Origin: Novakomyces olei
Taxonomy: Eukaryota
DNA: 64,000 nucleotides
Reading direction: 5' to 3'
NCBI GenBank assembly: GCA_016906335.1
Contig: JADEYG010000009.1
Location: 1,240,001-1,304,000 of the forward strand
Of the stretch, positions 1,662-63,073 are shown piece by piece. Every line of letters starts with the position of its first letter. Positions within the stretch are counted from its first letter, which is position 1. Position numbers and translations under genes: made by a program. The notes beneath the pieces were generated by a model. The model was given only the letters and a program-made list of their open reading frames with translations, was not told the origin of the DNA and searched no databases.

Positions 1662-4600
1662 ATGCAGAGGCACGTGCGACGGACGGCCCTAGCGGCCGCG
1701 AAAAGCACGCATATAAGAAAGCAATTTTTGCGATACAACAGTACGCTACCCGCTTCCGATTCTGCCTCTACCGATGTCTTTGCAATGCTTGACACCTTTG
1801 CACGGCGTCATTTGGGGAGCAATCACACGGACCAACAGCAGATGCTGAATAGGCTCGGGTACAAAGCAATGAATGAATTCATTAGTGATACCGTGCCTGA
1901 AGGTGTACTGGCGCCTGAATCGTTCCGCATGGGACAAGAGTCTTCTGGGCTTACCGAGTCCGAGATTTTGAGCCGTGTAGAGGAAATCAAGGCACAAAAT
2001 CGCGTTGTCACCTCTTTTATTGGAAATGGGTACTACGGAACTATCGTTCCTCCTATCATTCTGCGTAATGTTCTTGAGAACCCACTGTGGTACACGCCCT
2101 ACACGCCTTATCAAGCAGAAATTTCACAGGGTACGTATGAGTTTTATGTCTGTTTGGTGCATATTCGCGTGTTTTGATTTGTGCGCGTATAATTTGAGGC
2201 CTATAATTATTATGGCTTTCAAGATGTGCCTGATTATTCTATCTGATTTATCAGTTCTTTTACTTTACTAATTAATTACACCCACTCTGTTTTCTTTCTT
2301 TTTAATGATCACGCGTTTTAACTGTTTGATTGTTTGCTTTATTTTCTAAATTGCAACAGGACGTTTGGAAATGCTGGTTAATTTTCAGACTGTGGTATCA
2401 GACTTGACTGGTCTTGAAATGTCCAATGCATCACTACTAGACGAACCTACTGCGGCCGCCGAGGCTATGGTGCTGGCATTTAGTAATGATCGCAAGCGTC
2501 GGAAATCGGTGCTCGTCGATACTCTTGTGCGACCTCAAACCCTGGCACTTATTCAATCGAGAGCTGTTGGGTTCGGTATACAAGTTGATGTACGGAATGT
2601 CCATGAAACCCATGATTTTGCAGACTACTTTGCCGTTCTCGTCCAGTACCCTGGCAACAATGGAGCTGTACACGACTATTCCGACTTGGCTCAAGCTGTG
2701 CACACGAATGGTGGCAGTGTTATTGCCGCGACGGATCTTTTGGCTCTCACTTTGCTTAAACCACCAGGCGAATGGGGAGCAGATATAGCAGTAGGATCTG
2801 CGCAAAGGCTCGGTGTTCCAATGGGATTTGGTGGTCCACATGCTGGATTTTTTGCCTGCAGTAATGCTTTGAAACGCAGAATCCCTGGCCGTATTATCGG
2901 GCTCAGTAAAGACCGTCTGGGCCAGCCTGCTTACCGCCTGGCTCTGCAAACGCGAGAGCAGCATATACGTCGGGAGAAGGCGACTAGCAATATCTGCACG
3001 GCTCAGGCTCTCCTGGCTAATATGAGTGCCATGTACTGTATTTATCACGGACCAGAGGGCATTACAAACATTGCGCGCCGCGTATACGCCCTCACTACTC
3101 TGCTAGCAGAGGCAATCAAGGCTAAATCAGACTTTTATACGCTGCAGAACGACACTTGGTTTGATACTTTAACCCTAGGGCTTGCTCAAACGGAGGGAAG
3201 TGGAGCAGCAGAGTTTGTGGAAAGTCTGGCTAGGCAGAATGACGGCTTGAACCTGCGACTTGTAGATAATTCCACTGTCTCTGTGTCCTTGGACGAAACT
3301 ACGACGTTACAGGACTTGGAGAAACTATGGACCGGACTGCGTTTGCCTTCCGATCCTCTTAAATTTGCCGAAGAGTCTCGGGCTAACCTGACTGCCGTCT
3401 GGCCCAGTTTTGTTCGGACTAGCAGGTTTTTGCAGCATCCAACGTTCAATAAGTATCATTCAGAGACGGAAATGTTACGGTACCTGACACATTTGCAGCA
3501 AAAAGATCTTTCCCTGGCTCATTCTATGATTCCTCTGGGGTCGTGTACTATGAAGCTTAATGCGACGGTGGAAATGCAATCAATTAGCGCACCAGAGTTT
3601 GCGAATATACACCCGTTTGCTCCAAGCGAGCAGACAAAAGGGTATTCTATCTTGATAAAGGAACTAGAAGACGATCTGGCAAAGATAACTGGGCTTGATG
3701 GCGTATCCCTGCAGCCAAATTCCGGTGCTAATGGCGAATTTACGGGCTTACGTGTTATAAAAGCGTATTTCAATGATACGCAGCCGGACGGGAATAAGAG
3801 ACGCGTCTGTCTTATTCCCGTTTCTGCGCACGGAACAAATCCGGCTTCTGCAGTTATGGCAGGAATGGACGTCGTTTCCATAAAATGTCTGCCAAACGGT
3901 GATCTCGATATGGATGATATGCAAGCAAAAGTTACAAAACACTCAAAGAACTTGGCAGCCTTTATGGTCACTTATCCTAGTACATTTGGTGTTTTTGAAG
4001 TTACCGTGCGCAAAGCTATTGATTTGGTTCATAGCCATGGCGGTCAAGTATATATGGTATTTATTTGATTTTAATTATTTGATTCTAATTAATTATTCAT
4101 TTTAATTTAATTTATTCATGTGTTTTCAATCAATGACACGTGAGAAATGCACATTCTATTCTTTGCTATCTAGTGTTGATTCGTCTTTTTATTCCCCCTA
4201 AACAGCATTCAATATGTTCCCAGCTTGATGCTAATCAAGCAGGACGGGGCAAACATGAACGCTCAAATCGGCCTGACGTCCCCCGGATATTTGGGCGCAG
4301 ATGTGTGCCATCTCAATCTGCACAAGACATTTTGCATTCCGCATGGCGGTGGTGGCCCAGGAGTCGGGCCAATCTGCGTGTAAGTTACTCTTTATATTTA
4401 TTACGATATCAAATTGATTCATTTCTTGTCTGTTTATCTTTTATTACTGCCATTTGATTTTTCGTTCTCGATATATTTCCCAATTTCTTTGCTCACTTTC
4501 TAGGAAATCTCACTTGGCCCCCTACCTACCAGGCCACCCGTTGTGTAAGGAAATAACGGCAAAGACATCGATTCTTCCGGTTTCTGGTGCACCATACGGT

Positions 4601-5209
4601 TCTGCAGGAATTCTATCAATCTCGTGGGCTTATATAAAAATGATGGGCGGTCGTGGACTGACACAGGCTACTGAACTGGCGCTTTTGAACGCGAATTACA
4701 TGGCAGCCCAATTAGCGCCCCATTACAAGATTTTGTACACGAACAGAAACGGCCGCTGCGCTCACGAATTCATAATTGACTTGCGTATGTTTGATAAGTC
4801 TGCTGGAATACAGGCTTCGGATGTAGCAAAGCGGCTGTGTGACTATGGATTCCATGCTCCAACCTTGAGCTGGCCAGTCACAAACACTCTGATGGTGGAG
4901 CCCACAGAGAGCGAAAGCAGGGACGAGATGGACAGGTTTTGTGATGCAATGATAGCAATTCGACAAGAGATTAGAGAGATCGAAAGTGGTGACCAGCCTC
5001 GTGATAATAATATACTAAAAAATGCGCCGCATCCTCAAGTCGATGTGATTATCGATCCAGAGAGCTGGAATCGGCCCTATTCGCCAGAAAAGGCCGCCTA
5101 CCCTCTTCCGCACCTTCGGAGCAGAAAGTTTTGGCCTAGTGTTGCCCGACTCGATGATAGTTATGGCGATTTGAACCTCTTTTGCACGTGTGCTCCAGTT
5201 GAAGAATGA
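1662..5209 (+). CDS. GCV2: Glycine decarboxylase P-protein (glycine cleavage system), mitochondrial; exons ~1662-2130, 2360-4056, 4243-4379, 4504-5209
   Basis: Motifs [51 protein letters not shown] and HLNLHKTF (PLP lysine). GT..AG introns restore the frame. Arg-rich presequence. Confidence 0.97.
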
Positions 5210-11244: not shown

Positions 11245-12711
11245 TTATTGAGGGAAAAAGTATGCACCCTGCTGCTGTCGAGCATGGTCCATGTTGGTAT
11301 GATGCGGATGCATCCCCGGCGCTTGCTGCTGATTCAAGTTCTGGCCCTGATGTTGCATTTGGCGTCCATGCATATCCTGCTCTTGCCGGCCCGGCTGAGG
11401 CGGCTGGATTTGCGGACCGGTTTGGCTTTGTTGGGCTTGGTAGTGTATATGGGGGTCCTGCATCGCCGCCTGACTCATCGACGGCTGTTGCTGTCGTTGA
11501 ATATTTTGGTGATGCATTTGTGGATGGAATATCTCAGCAGAAGAAGGCTGTTGCTGCGATTGTGACTGAGGCTGCTGATGTGCACTCAGTGAAGGCAGCG
11601 TCGACTGAGCAGCGTATTGCTGGTCCGATCGATGGAGCAAATTTTGAGGATATGAATGTAACTGCTGCTGTTGCTGCAGAGCAGAAGCTGGTGGAAGTTG
11701 GCCAGTAACCGAAGGCTGCTGCTGCTGCTGCTGGCTCTGCTGGTTTTGCTGCTGGTTTTGCTGCTGGCTCTGCTGCTGATACATACTCAGGCCTTGGTAG
11801 TAGTCGTCCGTGGGCGGCTTTCCCGGCATATAGTGCTGCATTACAGGCGGTGGTGGGATAGCTGATCCAGCGGGCCCCATCATTGGTGGAGGCTGGTGGG
11901 ATCCATTGGGAGGGTAAACTGGACTTATACGAGGAATGCCCTTGTCATGCGCAGCCGCAGGGTACCCGCGCGCATCGGCAGCGGAGGGGATATGCTGGTG
12001 GTGGTGGTGCGCATGGTGCTGAGCCTGGTGCTGGATTGGCGGCGGAGGATTATGCTGCTGAGGCTGAGGCTGCTGCTGGTACGATCTTGAGATGTACATA
12101 TCCTCTCTCGGCACAATGTCGATAAGAAAATCAAACATGTCTGCCTTGCTAATGGCCACGGCAATGTCTCCGCGCTGAAGTGTCCTCCTTTTGTTTTCCT
12201 CCGCATGGATCCATGCGCGCATAGTCAGTTCCGTAATAAAAACCTCACAGCCTTTTGCAAACAGCACTGGCGCCTCTGCAGAGATCATTTTCACGTCCTC
12301 GTCCGTCTTCATTACCTTTTTGATCCGTGCCAGTGGTAAATGGTGGTTCTTGAAATCCTGATCCTGCGTCTCCAGCTGGTTAATCGTGTTTTGCCAGTAG
12401 TTTGCCATAATCTGAACATGGGCGCCAGAGAGCCCTACAATAACATTCGCAAACGCTCCACTCGTAATCGCCCGGGGGACAGATACTCCTCGAGCTACCG
12501 CGTGAGCCGCCGCACCGTACTGGCCCTCGCGTACACTGGGCTCGTAGACATAGGGCGGCTGCCTTTGCTGCTGCTGCTCAGACGAAGGTATTAATTGCTG
12601 GTTGCTCGTATAGCTGTCTGCACCGACTTGGTCTCGGCGCAAATTTCGGAGATCTGGTCCTGCGCCATCAGCTGTAAGACCGTTAAAGTATTGATCATGA
12701 GCTTCGTTCAT
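11245..12711 (-). CDS. HAP5: CCAAT-binding factor subunit Hap5/NF-YC with a long Q/P/H-rich C-terminus
   Basis: Histone fold [43 protein letters not shown]...[12 protein letters not shown]. Confidence 0.95.
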
Positions 12712-12993
12712 TAGTGGGCCTTTTTCCAAACAAAAAGCACGACGACTTTGCAAATTTGGTTTGCACGTTAGATTCGGCCTAGAGAAAAATCAGAAACGCG
12801 CGTGTGGATATCCAGTCGCAATTGCCAATATGAATTAAGGATTTGCAGGCGCTACGAGTGGAAGCGCAGGGCTGCTGCGACAACGACACCTTGCGATAAT
12901 AGTATTTGCCTCAAATTCCTGTGTTTACAATACCAGCAGAGGGATCAGCTGTCGTGGACAACAAACGTTGACTGTCAAGTAATCAAAAGTTGC

Positions 12994-56863: not shown

Positions 56864-59800
56864 ATGCATGAGCAAAGCGATTTTAATGGAGAATCACGAC
56901 ACGGATCAGCGGCTGATGGAAGAATCAAACCGGATTACAATGGAGTGGGCACAAATGGAGCCGGTAATGAAAATGGCGTTGAAAGGAGAACGATAGAGAA
57001 GAAAGGCAGTGATTTCAAAGGCGCGCCATTACGTAAAAGCAAGAATTTTCGTATAGTCTATGATCCCGAGTTATCGCAGAGCAAAGAAGAGCGTAAAGCT
57101 GGCAAACGTAAACCAGTTTATCGATTTAACGGTGGTGGAAATGTATATTGACCTGTACCAATCAGAGATGCTAATATTACAGGATATTCATGTTAAAGAT
57201 CCGCGGCGGAGCCTTGGACATCACTATCCCAAACCCACGCCTGGAAGATATAAACATAATGTTCGCACTAAACTACGTTTATTGCACTATGAGGTATGTT
57301 TGAAAAATAAAATAAAATAAGATAAAATTGGTTCTATGTATATGATTACATTTACGTCTGTGTTTGCAATGTGCCGTTATCGGCTTTTTTTCGTCTATTC
57401 AGTTTGATACTAACGTACAGTACGACGCTAATTCAATTGGAAAGCTGCCGGCACGCGAGATTTTCATCTCTGGAATCTCTCCAATCACAACAACGGATCA
57501 GATTGCAGCATTTTTCCGCGCTCTCGGCGACATTCAAGAGATAAATCTTCGAGTTGACCCTCGTACAGGTTCGTCTTTGGGAGTTTGCCTCTTAAAATTT
57601 CGGGCAGAGCAGCCTTCTTCGTATGGAGGAGGCGGTGGAGTTGGAGCAGCTCGTCGGGCTGTTCGAGAACGCGATGGCATGAAACTTGGCCCGGCAATTT
57701 TACACGTTGAAACTGATGCTGAGGGAGAAAAATGTGAAGCTGCAGTTACCCAACTGCTCTCTCGACTAGCGGAAAAACAGAGGCAGCGTGATATAGAGAC
57801 GCGGAGACGGTTAGAGGCAGAACGCGTTGAGCTGGAACGAGCTCAGCGCGAGACTGAACAGAAAAGGCAGCAAGAAGAAGCTCAAACCCGGTTAGAAGAA
57901 GCTAAAAGAATCGCGCAAGAACGGGCAAATGCTTTTCTCGAGGCAAACTTGAAGAATACAGAGAGTGCAAAGGCCGCTGCGACTCAAAATGTGTCTGCGC
58001 ACTTTACCTCTTCCAATCATACGCCGAAAGCGTCTGTGAATCGAGCGCCTCTTGCACCAAAAGCTGTGGAAACAAAAACCAAATCTGTCCTTCCTTCTGC
58101 CAACGGCAATACAAACACAAACACGAATACTCCACAGTCGCTTTTGAAAAACAAACCCTACATTTTCCTTGCGTCTGCCTGTGTCTCCCCTTACAAATTT
58201 AATCGGGCGGATATAAAGGCACACTTTGAGCGGTACAGCTGGACTCGAGTCGCCAGCGACGAGTCTGGATTCTATATTATTTTTGAGCAAAATGCACCGG
58301 CTCGTCGGTGCTTTGAGGCTATGAACGGATCGGTGTTTGAAGGGAATCCTATACGATTGGAGCTGTTTGAAGCTCGATCTTTAGCCTCTTCTTCCGCAAT
58401 GCATCCTCTTCCGTCGTCAAAGTTTAAACGGGCCTTTAAACCGGTGGATCCCGTTACAGAGGCACTTTCTACACTAACGCGCGAATTAATGGATGCCTTT
58501 ATGAAGGACCTGGTAAACAAAATCGCAGGCCCGGCTCTGTTTGAGTCTGTTCGCCCTACAAACTACCCCCTTCTGCATAGTGGAGCTACGGCAGGCGGAA
58601 ATTTAGAGCCAGCAGCAGCCTCAGAGCCGCCTGAATCAATAGACAGTAGAATGGCAAGCTTGGCAGCAAACCCGGACATGGTATTAGCCGAGAAGACAAA
58701 GCAAATAGCGCTGGACACTGTGGATCAAAGAGAAGAGCAGAAATTTGCACAGATTCCGTTACTACCGCGTATAAAAAAGCACAAAGAAGGCGAGGCCGTT
58801 GGTGCGGCTGGTCCAAGGTCGCGGCCTGTGCGCCGTGCAGACGTGCGGCCAATGCAGTACTCGTTCCATACAGACGAGGGGGACACTGATCAGGAGACAG
58901 ACGTGGACGAAGAAGAACCGGAAGAAAAAGGAAAAGGAGACCAGAAAGAGCCAAGCTTTTTATCCAGAAAGTCTGCTTTGCAAGAAACAGAGGCAATTAA
59001 ACACGATGATGAAGAGGAGGAGGATGAAGAGGACAAAGAGGACAAAGACAAAGAGGACAAAGACAAAGAAGCTGACGCTGACGCTGACGAGACGGTTAGA
59101 CGCAAAAGACTTGCCACTGCTCAAAGCAGACCAGCGGGTAAAGGTATAACCAGTCCGTCAAAGCACCCTAGCAGCCCTCTATCAGCAGCAGAGTATGATG
59201 GTCCATCAAGGACGAAGAGGGACCCTCAGAGTCGGCGGCAGAGACCCTCGATCGAGTTTACCTCGAGCGAGGAAGAAGAAGAGGAAGAAGAAGAAGAGGA
59301 GGAGGATAGTGACGAGGCAGGGCAGGACGACGTGGCAATGCAGGATATAAAGGCTGTGAGTGAAGCCTTAGAGCCAAGTCTACTCTGCGAATCCGGAGTG
59401 GAAGCGTCAGTGACGAAGCAGAGCCCAACTAAATCTGAAAGAAAGCCTTCTCCAGACTCGACGGGCCCACTGCAAGAGACGGCTCGACGAGCAGTTCGGG
59501 GCACGGGACCCCCCAAGCCGAGAAAGAGTGCCGTTGTTACGCGCCCTCTTTCTCCTACTCCTGACTTGAGCAAGTCAAGGTCATGGCAAAAAAAGAGCAC
59601 GACTAAGCGTACACTGAAGAAGGGCAAAACGGCGTTGCGAGTACAGTTTAGCGACACTGAAGAGGAGAGTTCTGGCAATGAAACAACGGTTGCTGCAATG
59701 GCAGAAGCGGACTTGAAAGGGCAAATAGAGCAGCAAAATGAAGGTGTGAAACTGGAAAATGGAGCAGAATTGGCAAGTGTAAGCCAACGTTTGTCAACAG

Positions 59801-60957
59801 TACTGAGCTTTTCCGACCCGGATCAAGATATTGTACTCGATCTAGACGGCGTTCAGGCTCTTGTTCACTATGACGAAGATGTGCTCTTTCTCTCAGAGGC
59901 ACTGAAAAGCAGTGGAATCCAACCGTCAGTGGCAGTTTCTGACCCTGAAGCGTTTGCCTTTATGCTCAAAGATTTAAAGGCGTCAGAGTACAAGAGCGCT
60001 GTGCACAACGGTATACAAAACAACAGTATACATAACAATAATGTTATACATAACAATAATGTTATACATAACAATGTTATACATAACAATGTTATACATA
60101 ACAATAACGGTATACAAAACAATAACGATACCAATAACAATACCAATATTGTGCTCGGCTCTGGTGCAGAGGGAATTCGGACGAGTATAAGCAGCAGCGC
60201 TCGGACGCGTGGCTACACTCCTATTCCCGACACTATAAAGTCTCAGTATTTGCCGCAGCGGAACCGAGTGAGTGTTGGCAGTACGGATACTGGAAATAAA
60301 AGCAGCAGCAATAATTATGAAAAGGGCAATAACGCGTCTAATGCTAATACGAGTGCAAACGCAAATAATAGCAATAACAGCAGCGCTGTCTCTGCCGCAG
60401 GACGAGCGTCGTCCCGGCTGAATAGGGTTAATAACCGCCGGCTTCAAGCGGGCGTAGAGAACTCTCGGAGCATGTTGAGCACGGAGACTGATTTGCTACG
60501 GTTTAATGCGCTAAAAACGCGCAAGAAGCAGCTAAAGTTCGGAGCCAGTCGGATCCATACGCTCGGCCTTTACGCACTGGAGCCGATAGACGCAAACGAG
60601 ATGGTGATTGAGTACGTGGGCGAGATAATCAGGCAGCAAGTGGCCGATGTAAGGGAAAAGCAATATGAGCGAATGGGAATAGGATCGAGCTATATGTTCC
60701 GCATCGACGAGGAGACTATCATCGATGCCACTAAAACTGGGAACGAGTGCCGTCTTATCAACCACTCCTGTGATCCTAATTGCAAACCAAAAATCATTAA
60801 AGTTCAGGGCCAAAAGAAGATTGTCATCTACGCTCAGCGCGATATCGAGCCGGGCGAAGAGCTTTCTTTTGACTACAAATTTCCGCGGGAGGATGATCCA
60901 AAGCTCAAGATTCCGTGTTTATGTGGCAGTCCTTTGTGCCGTGGGACGCTAAACTAG
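56864..60957 (+). CDS. SET1: Histone H3K4 methyltransferase Set1 (RRM, n-SET, SET, post-SET), 3 exons
   Basis: [64 protein letters not shown]. Confidence 0.96.
60004..60147 (+). repeat. Coding tandem repeat (HNN[N]VI)n in the Set1 n-SET region
   Basis: CATAACAAT(AAT)GTTATA units. Confidence 0.9.
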
Positions 60958-61475
60958 TGTACATATTATATAAACCAATAATCGTGATAAATAATTAATA
61001 ATTAATCAAAACTCGACCGTCAAGTATGAGACATAAATAATAAAATAAATGTTAATTAGATGACATAATCAGAATAATCAAAATAATCAAAATAATTGAT
61101 AAATATAAATATAAATATAAAAACATAAATAATAAATAGTTAAAAGTAAAAATAAATAAATAAATATTAATTAATTAATTAATTAATTAATTAGACCATA
61201 CAGTCAATAATGTCAATAATCTAATTACTCGAATATAATAATATATTTGACCAAACCAAAAAAATCTTATTTGGTTGCCGTCACGCAGTAAATCAGGCAC
61301 AACCATACCTACAGCTCTACGGCAACAAGTACACTGGAATAAGGCAAACAAACTCTCAATTATCTACTCGAGCGTAAAAGCACACTATGTACTCGGACGG
61401 ATGCCGCATTGGGATGCCGCATTGTGGCAAGATAGCCATTGGGAACACTGGCGACACTGTAAAAGTGTCTTCAGC

Positions 61476-63073
61476 TTAAACAGTCTCGTTCTTGACGTAC
61501 TTGCCTCCGGCATAAAAAGCGTCGCTGCCCAGCTCCTCTTCAATACGGAGCAGCTGGTTCAGTTTAGCCAGGCGCTCAGAGCGGCAGGGAGCACCCGTCT
61601 TGATCTGGCCGGCACCGATACCAACGACCAAATCCGCGATAAAGCTGTCCTCTGTCTCTCCAGAGCGGTGAGAGACCATAACCCCCCAACCATCGCTCTG
61701 AGCGAGGCGGGCAGCTTCCAGCGACTCACTAACTGTCCCTATCTGGTTCAGCTTGAGCAGAAGGCAGTTGCTCGCCTTCTTTTCAATGGCAGTAGCGATA
61801 CGTTTCGGGTTAGTTACAGTCAAATCATCCGCAACCAACTGGAACTTTGAATTGGCACGCAGATAAGACCAAGCGTCCCAATCATCCTGCTCAAACGGGT
61901 CCTCGATAGAGATGATCCCGTACTCGTCGGCAAGGTCCTTGTACAGCTGAGCCAGAGCTTTGGCCTCATAGTGCTGGGAGGGATCGGCATTGGCACTCTT
62001 AAAGTCCAGATCGTATTTGCCATCCTTGTAAAACTCAGAGGAGGCAGCGTCGAGGGCAATGTGCACTTTGCCCTTGTAGCCAGCCTTCTCGATAGCGTCA
62101 CGGATCAGGTCCAGAGCCTCACGAGGCGTCTCCACATCCGGAGCAACACCGCCTTCGTCTCCTACATTGCCGGCGCTAGTGCCATACTTTTTCTTGGCAA
62201 GAGATCGGAGAGTGGCGTACGTCTCTGCGCCCCAGCGCATTGCCTCAGAGAAAGAGGGAGCGGCAACGGGCATAATCATAAACTCCTGAAAGGCGAGTCG
62301 GCCACCGGCATGAGTCCCGCCATTGAGGACATTGAAGCTCGGCAGTGGGAGAACATAGGGTTTTTTCACTCCGTAGAGCTGGGCAATGTAGGCGTACAGG
62401 GGGAGACCTTTCTCCGCCGCCGCTGCCCGGGCCACACACATGGACACACCGAGAATGGCGTTGGCACCGAGTTTGGCCTTGTTGTCTGTGCCATCGAGCG
62501 CGTTGAGAAACTCGTCAATCTTGGCCTGCTCAGTGACGGGAATGCCTTCTTTAATCAGCGCTGGAGCAATGATGTCATTGACATTGGCCACGGCTTTAGT
62601 CACGCCTTTGCCGCCCCATTTAGAGTCCTTGTCACGCAGCTCTACCGCCTCCCATTGGCCCGTGCTTGCGCCAGAGGGCACTGCTGAGCGGTGCAGACCC
62701 GTCTCTGTGATCAAGTCGACCTCGACCGTCGGATTGCCGCTACTTGTTAGACGAATGAAACATTTAAAGTGCAACTCGGACAGACAGTAAAATATACTAG
62801 ACTGAAACTGTAATTGTAATGTTATTGTATTGTTATTGTATTGTAATTGAATTGTAATTGAATTGTAATTGAATTGTAATTGCAATTGTCACTGTCATTG
62901 TCATTGTTACTGTCATTGTCACTGTCACTGTCACTATAACTGTGACTGAAACTGTGACTGAAACTAGTGACAAATGCAACTCCAATTGGCTGATCAAACG
63001 GTCTTTTTTCAAACTGACTATCTACTTACCGAGAGTCGTAAATGGTTCGAGCGTGGATCTTTTGAATTGCCAT
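61476..63073 (-). CDS. ENO1: Enolase; intron 62740-63029
   Basis: [50 protein letters not shown]. Confidence 0.98.
62800..62972 (+). repeat. Compound simple repeats (AATTGTAATTG; CACTGT/CATTGT; ACTGTGACTGAA) in the enolase intron
   Basis: Direct observation. Confidence 0.85.

Follow-up and report, generated by a model that had tools for sequence, protein, structure and literature searches.

The window, i.e., the whole 64-kb stretch of DNA that was analyzed, carries ordinary fungal housekeeping genes, among them those for the glycine cleavage P protein, KIN17, saccharopine dehydrogenase, Exo70, and enolase. The glycine cleavage P protein is represented by two open reading frames (ORFs; 2365-4068 and 4454-5209, spanning 2365-5209), which are probably exons separated by an intron. 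An ORF of 502 residues on the minus strand (11248-12753) exhibits a central histone-fold domain (CBFD_NFYB_HMF) and does not code for a core histone. The gene studied here is located at 56864..60957 on the plus strand and lies tail to tail with the enolase gene (61476-62885, minus strand). The first approximately 45 residues of the enolase ORF are rich in Asn and Gln and extend beyond the Pfam match, suggesting that the true start or an intron is situated further in. Apart from the Set1 gene described below, no COMPASS subunit, a set comprising Swd1, Swd3, Bre2/Ash2, Sdc1, Spp1, Swd2, and Shg1, was identified when 17 large ORFs from this stretch were scanned against Pfam.

The Set1 gene is predicted to consist of three exons and is complete, comprising RRM, SET-associated, N-SET, SET, and post-SET parts. 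Its splice sites are predicted from splice signals and the reading frame. Exon 1 (56864..57142, plus strand as for all features of this gene) begins with the ATG at 56864, contains 93 open codons and ends before the sequence GTATAT. It is followed by intron 1 (57143..57182; GTATAT...GCTAAT...ACAG), which measures merely 40 nt, and by exon 2 (57183..57293; 37 codons). Intron 2 (57294..57420; GTATGT...TACTAAC...ACAG) has a length of 127 nt and carries a perfect TACTAAC branch site. Exon 3 (57421..60957) includes the stop codon and follows the frame of the last-exon ORF, which in itself extends over 1197 codons (57364..60957). The spliced model yields a protein of 1308 amino acids without internal stop codons, in which the Phe residue discussed below occupies position 1280.

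The domain order identified with Pfam is typical of Set1. Numbered along the last-exon ORF, an RRM_1 domain (PF00076, E 3e-10, residues 33-80; 57460..57603) is followed by a SET_assoc domain (PF11767, E 5.1e-15, residues 268-325; 58165..58338), an N-SET domain (PF11764, E 2.8e-21, residues 822-1049; 59827..60510) and the SET domain (PF00856, E 5e-27, residues 1067-1172; 60562..60879). The N-SET domain is located directly upstream of the SET domain, a feature that marks membership in the Set1 family. It carries an Asn-rich insertion: its match contains Asn-rich imperfect repeats at 60019-60141, and the domain spans 228 residues as compared with the 172 positions of the profile. A run of 12 Glu residues (59263-59316) was observed in the acidic, Ser-rich linker of the protein. 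At the C-terminal end, the post-SET cysteine cluster CLCGSPLC (60916..60939) retains the cysteines that occupy invariant columns in an alignment of 34 proteins. Ahead of these cysteines and after the SET motif, three residues, P-K-L, are inserted (60889-60897), at columns that are gapped in 240 to 244 of 245 aligned homologs. The last 183 residues could be aligned without gaps to the Set1 chains of S. cerevisiae (6ven_N, 6bx3_E) and Kluyveromyces lactis (6ugm_M, 6chg_C) in a phmmer search against PDB chains. In this ranking, Set1 chains occupied the top positions with E values from 2.5e-69 to 3.2e-60 and MLL1 followed at about 1e-47. By these sequence features, the gene is Set1, the catalytic subunit of COMPASS.

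Within the SET domain, positions 60856-60882 (gaa gag ctt tct ttt gac tac aaa ttt) translate into EELSFDYKF in the Set1 frame, where the TTT codon at 60868-60870 codes for Phe. In the phmmer alignment, this Phe falls on the first Tyr of the EELTYDYKF motif of the yeast Set1 chains. This Tyr is presumably Y1052, as counted from the length of yeast Set1. Y1052 of S. cerevisiae Set1 has been described as the Phe/Tyr switch position (PMC3585878). An earlier note, made from the sequence without database searches, had assigned the gene to Set1, read EELSFDYKF with its TTT codon as well as two further motifs (60739-60771 and NCKPKII, 60778-60798) and equated the column of the Phe with the product-specificity switch. 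The Pfam domain set and the best PDB matches agree with the first of these claims, the motifs are found as described, and the gapless yeast alignment together with the published position of the switch bears out the last.

The distribution of the Phe was analyzed in a set of fungal and animal Set1/SETD1 proteins and fragments collected from four sources. These were a word-index search for which the C-terminal 188 residues served as the query (best 120 of 1618 matches), an exhaustive comparison with 1.84 billion representatives by phmmer (best 150 of 18366, with 1517 at E 1e-30 or better), a search with the last 48 residues, in which the word containing Phe would favor any proteins sharing it (best 120 of 426), and a search for proteins shorter than 658 residues (best 120 of 883). 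The switch column is occupied by Tyr in 245 of 245 homologs of a MAFFT alignment and, as determined by motif matching, in all 416 distinct homologs among the matches listed; an earlier tally of listed homologs had given 307 of 307. The question raised in the earlier note, whether Phe might be common among Set1 orthologs, is thus answered by a count of 0/416. No relative with more than 73% identity in the SET region was present among the matches listed from the three word-index searches and the exhaustive search, and the lineage of the query itself is therefore considered unrepresented among the homologs. The literature searched on the Tyr switch and Phe switch contained no description of a Set1 ortholog that naturally carries Phe. 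The presence of Phe at the switch position is far from chance and is confirmed as a real observation.

A sequencing or assembly error concealing a true TAT codon would nevertheless produce the same reading, since Phe and Tyr codons are only one base apart, and the region 60852-61000 is covered by no independent contig or read in the four runs compared. Run X1, the possible source, and run X4 yielded no matching contig. Contigs from two runs of another study reach close to this region: those of run X2 show 0 differences over 60300-60781, and those of run X3 show 0 differences over 60300-60367 and 60644-60834, where the matches stop. Consequently, the motif at 60739-60771 and the upstream SSYMF motif are confirmed by both runs and NCKPKII by X3 only. 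The codon adjoining the Phe is private as well (TCT, Ser instead of Thr), and four further private residues are situated 60-130 bases upstream, in the part where the contigs of the other study show 0 differences. Furthermore, the frame continues to a canonical C-terminal end of 13 residues and thus contains no indel. Because the adjacent codon is private and the frame reaches the canonical end, an error at the Phe codon is unlikely, and a true TAT appears highly improbable. DNA identical to the Set1 gene of the window was observed at low depth (2-6) in the large runs X2 and X3, which are labeled as another organism. This identity suggests that the fungus may be a minor component of other samples.

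Five other query residues share with the Phe the property of being absent from all aligned homologs, which gives a private set of E, C, K, P, S, and F (0/245). These six residues form the three adjacent pairs EC, KP, and SF, which are situated in three motifs around the active site. In the 11-residue motif at 60739..60771, Glu-Cys (each 0/245) replaces the usual Ile/Leu/Val followed by Ala/Gly; a Leu of the same motif is shared with 25 of the 245, and its Arg, Asn, and His are retained. In NCKPKII (60778..60798), both Lys and Pro are private (each 0/245), the column of the Pro being Ala in every one of the 245 homologs. The Ser-Phe pair of EELSFDYKF (60856..60882) occupies one column that is Thr in 244 and one that is Tyr in 245 of the 245, while the following Tyr and the last Phe of the motif are retained. 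A further change is found in SSYMF (60685..60699), in which SYMF represents the “channel tetrapeptide” and Met replaces the usual Leu. Here, the column shows Leu in 238, Met in six and Phe in one of the 245 homologs, and the Met of the query is thus common to six other proteins. When the 50 columns with at least 98% conservation are considered, the query deviates at three, as compared with a median of zero for the other proteins; three deviations are reached by 5/245.

According to structural work, the active site of the SET domain is surrounded by the cofactor, the SET-C strand, and the channel tetrapeptide, which reads I-Y-M-F in MLL4. The first SET-C strand contributes an Ala that makes packing contact with the Phe of the tetrapeptide, and exchange of this Ala (A5484S) lowers MLL4 activity; the tetrapeptide is also bonded through its main chain to the hydroxyl group of the switch Tyr (PMC4597100). 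In the query, the sole Ala of the NC-x-A-K-I-I strand is changed to Pro and the hydroxyl group of the switch Tyr is lost. Matched to MLL4 by position arithmetic, this Pro would take the place of A5484, the SET-C Ala in contact with the Phe of the tetrapeptide. An AlphaFold2 model built from a 34-row alignment reached a mean pLDDT of 65 and fell below 50 across the tetrapeptide and NHSC regions, which is too poor for an analysis of spatial clustering.

The residues on which catalysis depends are retained. Mutations of G951, Y967, Y993, R1013, N1016, H1017, Y1054, or F1056 abolished or strongly reduced the activity of yeast Set1 (PMC3585878), and the query residues aligned to all eight are unchanged. 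The Asn and His of NHSC, the Tyr of the DY pair, the Tyr of EYVGE, and the Tyr of the tetrapeptide, with catalytic roles as given in the same source, are unchanged. An H3K4 methyltransferase activity of Set1 type is predicted.

Regulatory features are likewise in place. The sequence SSARTRGY (60193..60216) corresponds to GSARTEGYY, the consensus derived from an alignment of 34 Set1 proteins. It is taken here to be a WIN-like motif, presumably with a role involving Swd3/WDR5. A WIN motif of Set1 is mentioned elsewhere (10.1101/740738). An 11-residue arginine-rich motif, the ARM helix (60409..60441), which is a trait specific to Set1 orthologs, aligns to SSRLNRVFQRR of K. lactis Set1. Its four arginine columns are occupied by Arg in 242, 243, 242, and 223 of the 245 homologs, respectively, and the query exhibits Arg in all four, matching K. 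lactis R821, R824, R828, and R829. According to the same source, these arginines dock on the acidic patch of the nucleosome and on H2B, thereby coupling H2B ubiquitin to activation of the enzyme (10.1101/740738). The conserved N-SET domain, WIN-like motif, and ARM arginines speak mildly against a loss of subunits or of the dependence on H2B ubiquitination. The proposal of the earlier note that COMPASS subunits or H2B-ubiquitin dependence had been lost or had diverged finds no support in these data.

A maximum-likelihood tree of the SET domain was calculated from the query and 41 homologs selected for taxonomic spread, the other homologs collected by then being left out. The query was placed as sister to Schizosaccharomyces with a support of 98/93. 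Its end branch has a length of 0.47 compared with a median of 0.093, i.e., it is about five times longer. The sequence IHTLGL is common to the query and five Schizosaccharomyces-type proteins, and the exchange of Trp for Leu in this motif, which had been considered as a private oddity, was ruled out as such. Four Schizosaccharomyces Set1 proteins (P0010, P0015, P0017, and P0019) are 68-69% identical to the query in the SET region. The domain order and the ARM arginines are as in Schizosaccharomyces and in S. cerevisiae and K. lactis Set1 (6ven, 6bx3, 6ugm, and 6chg). In contrast to these proteins, the query alone exhibits the switch Phe, the private E, C, K, P, and S residues, the PKL insertion, and the Asn-rich insertion in N-SET.

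Expectations for the product spectrum come from engineered enzymes. Takahashi et al. are said to have reported in 2009 that a Tyr-to-Phe exchange lessens the dependence on Spp1/Cps40. In yeast, Y1052F changed H3K4me1, me2, and me3 to 0.56, 0.84, and 1.49 of the wild type, respectively, and Y1052A and Y1052V caused a shift in the same direction, with me3 increased and me1 decreased; all three alleles were “silent” for rDNA silencing and for suppression of ipl1-2 (PMC3585878). Elsewhere, SET1(Y1052F) is referred to as hyperactive, with increased H3K4me3 and hyper-respiratory behavior (PMC5126570). For human MLL1, Y3942F is cited as gaining di- and trimethylation of a peptide (PMC3585878). Both engineered exchanges are identical to that of the query and affect the aligned position. 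They are, however, laboratory mutations in otherwise wild-type pockets, whereas the Phe of the query is natural and occurs amid other pocket changes.

With moderate confidence, we favor the view that the gene encodes an active Set1 of a fungus that is sister to Schizosaccharomyces, that its pocket was remodeled in this lineage, and that its output is shifted toward H3K4me3. In this model, the Phe standing in place of an otherwise universal Tyr would be accompanied by the five private substitutions and the exchange of Leu for Met in the tetrapeptide, and the private pairs would lie in the three motifs (60739-60771, NCKPKII, and EELSFDYKF) that wall the pocket for cofactor and lysine. Loss of the Tyr hydroxyl would leave more space around the lysine amine, and this extra space would move the product from H3K4me1 toward H3K4me3, as in engineered yeast Y1052F. 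The enzyme would most likely still operate within an ordinary COMPASS, because the parts that link it to its partners and to H2B ubiquitination, i.e., N-SET, the WIN-like motif, and the ARM arginines, are intact. Since the switch residue within its ELxF/YDY motif is Phe, the active site would be of the Phe type, which is di- or trimethylating, and a product bias toward trimethylation is suggested by analogy. The statement of the earlier note that engineered Tyr-to-Phe exchanges raise trimethylation agrees with the yeast Y1052F data (PMC3585878; PMC5126570). Its description of the enzyme as “intrinsically trimethylating” holds in part: a shift toward trimethylation can fairly be expected from yeast Y1052F, whereas the intrinsic property itself stays conjecture.

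As a counterweight, the effect of Y1052F in yeast is modest, with me3 increased about 1.5-fold and near silence in two phenotypic assays, and the influence of the Phe might just as well be offset as strengthened by the Ser, Pro, and Met that came with it. The length of the end branch also fits a relaxed constraint. A possible though clearly less probable alternative is compensated or near-neutral drift, in which Ser, Pro, and Met reposition the pocket of a fast-evolving SET domain and the methylation output equals that of other fungi. The fivefold longer branch would be expected under such drift, and the 5/245 homologs that likewise deviate at three near-invariant columns indicate that comparable departures occur elsewhere. 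The three “silent” yeast alleles suggest that the position tolerates change (PMC3585878), and mobility of the tetrapeptide has been argued to take MLL enzymes off the switch rule already (PMC4597100). However, Tyr in all 416 listed fungal and animal homologs would be unexpected if Phe were freely tolerated, and each of the three yeast substitutions alters the ratio of me1 to me3 (PMC3585878).

A long branch with changes in the active site would also be expected of a duplicated copy. The query might then represent a specialized paralog with a narrower role, e.g., dedicated trimethylation, and a canonical Tyr-bearing enzyme of the Set1/MLL type would be encoded elsewhere in the genome. This scenario is improbable, as the full Set1 architecture is kept and the query groups with the Schizosaccharomyces Set1 proteins at 98/93; in addition, S. 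pombe is reported to possess no H3K4 methyltransferase other than Set1 (PMC10795994). A more far-reaching version of the favored reading, a remodeled Set1 with a shifted output, holds that all walls of the lysine pocket were rebuilt jointly, i.e., the cofactor loop with EC, SET-C with KP, the switch with SF, and the tetrapeptide with M. No Set1 ortholog known so far would then precede it in trimethylating H3K4 through the geometry of the active site itself, without tuning by Spp1 or other subunits. This version is rather unlikely; if true, it could go along with an altered set of demethylases or readers, or with a flattened gradient of H3K4me1, me2, and me3 along genes.

Phe at the switch is a normal feature of other SET subfamilies. 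DIM-5 and G9a are SET enzymes that carry it. SET2/ASH1/NSD-like domains also share the Phe in (E)ELxFDY with the query. All of these are members of different SET subfamilies that act on different lysines, and their identity to the query does not exceed about 40%. A scan of metagenome contigs with a degenerate pattern for E-E-x-[S/T-like]-F-D-Y-x-F revealed at least 119 loci, and 103 of the loci listed gave a SET-like match to the query. Most of these exhibit the NCETQKW-type motif of SET2/ASH1/NSD-like enzymes, in which Phe is normal, and no Phe-bearing relative with more than 55% identity to the query was found among the at least 119 loci listed. A few environmental domains of the SET1/MLL class (L083, L020, and the L043/L059 group) do show Phe at the aligned switch position, and among solved structures they match Set1 and MLL1 best (E 1.7e-46, 9.5e-42, and 3.2e-41). 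They are 46-55% identical to the query, are known from short exons or contigs, and none of them is a fungal Set1. Judged from these alignments, Phe at the switch is not new to the wider SET1/MLL class, as it is present in a few environmental domains. Several Phe-bearing environmental exons of the SET1/MLL class (L050, L100, L073, L046, and L113) contain in-frame stops under the standard code, which suggests that they derive from organisms with a reassigned stop codon. The link between residue and output within the Trithorax/SET1 group is illustrated by the Arabidopsis ATX family of plant paralogs, in which the switch residue of ATX1, ATX2, and ATXR7 is Tyr and these enzymes chiefly control H3K4me1 (PMC9372134).

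The protein described here would accordingly be seen as a variant of a well-known enzyme, and what appears to be new is the natural Phe in a fungal Set1. It is acknowledged that SET1/MLL enzymes depart from the Phe/Tyr rule, as they produce H3K4me3 despite a “monomethylase” Tyr (PMC3585878 and PMC4597100). This exception is usually attributed to tuning of the pocket by partner subunits and by signals from chromatin. A natural Phe-Set1 beside the fission yeast model would offer a ready comparison for asking why the Tyr has been kept and what a less restrained enzyme demands of the cell. If its output should turn out to be unchanged, neighboring pocket residues would be able to override the switch, which would bear on the prediction of product specificity from sequence.
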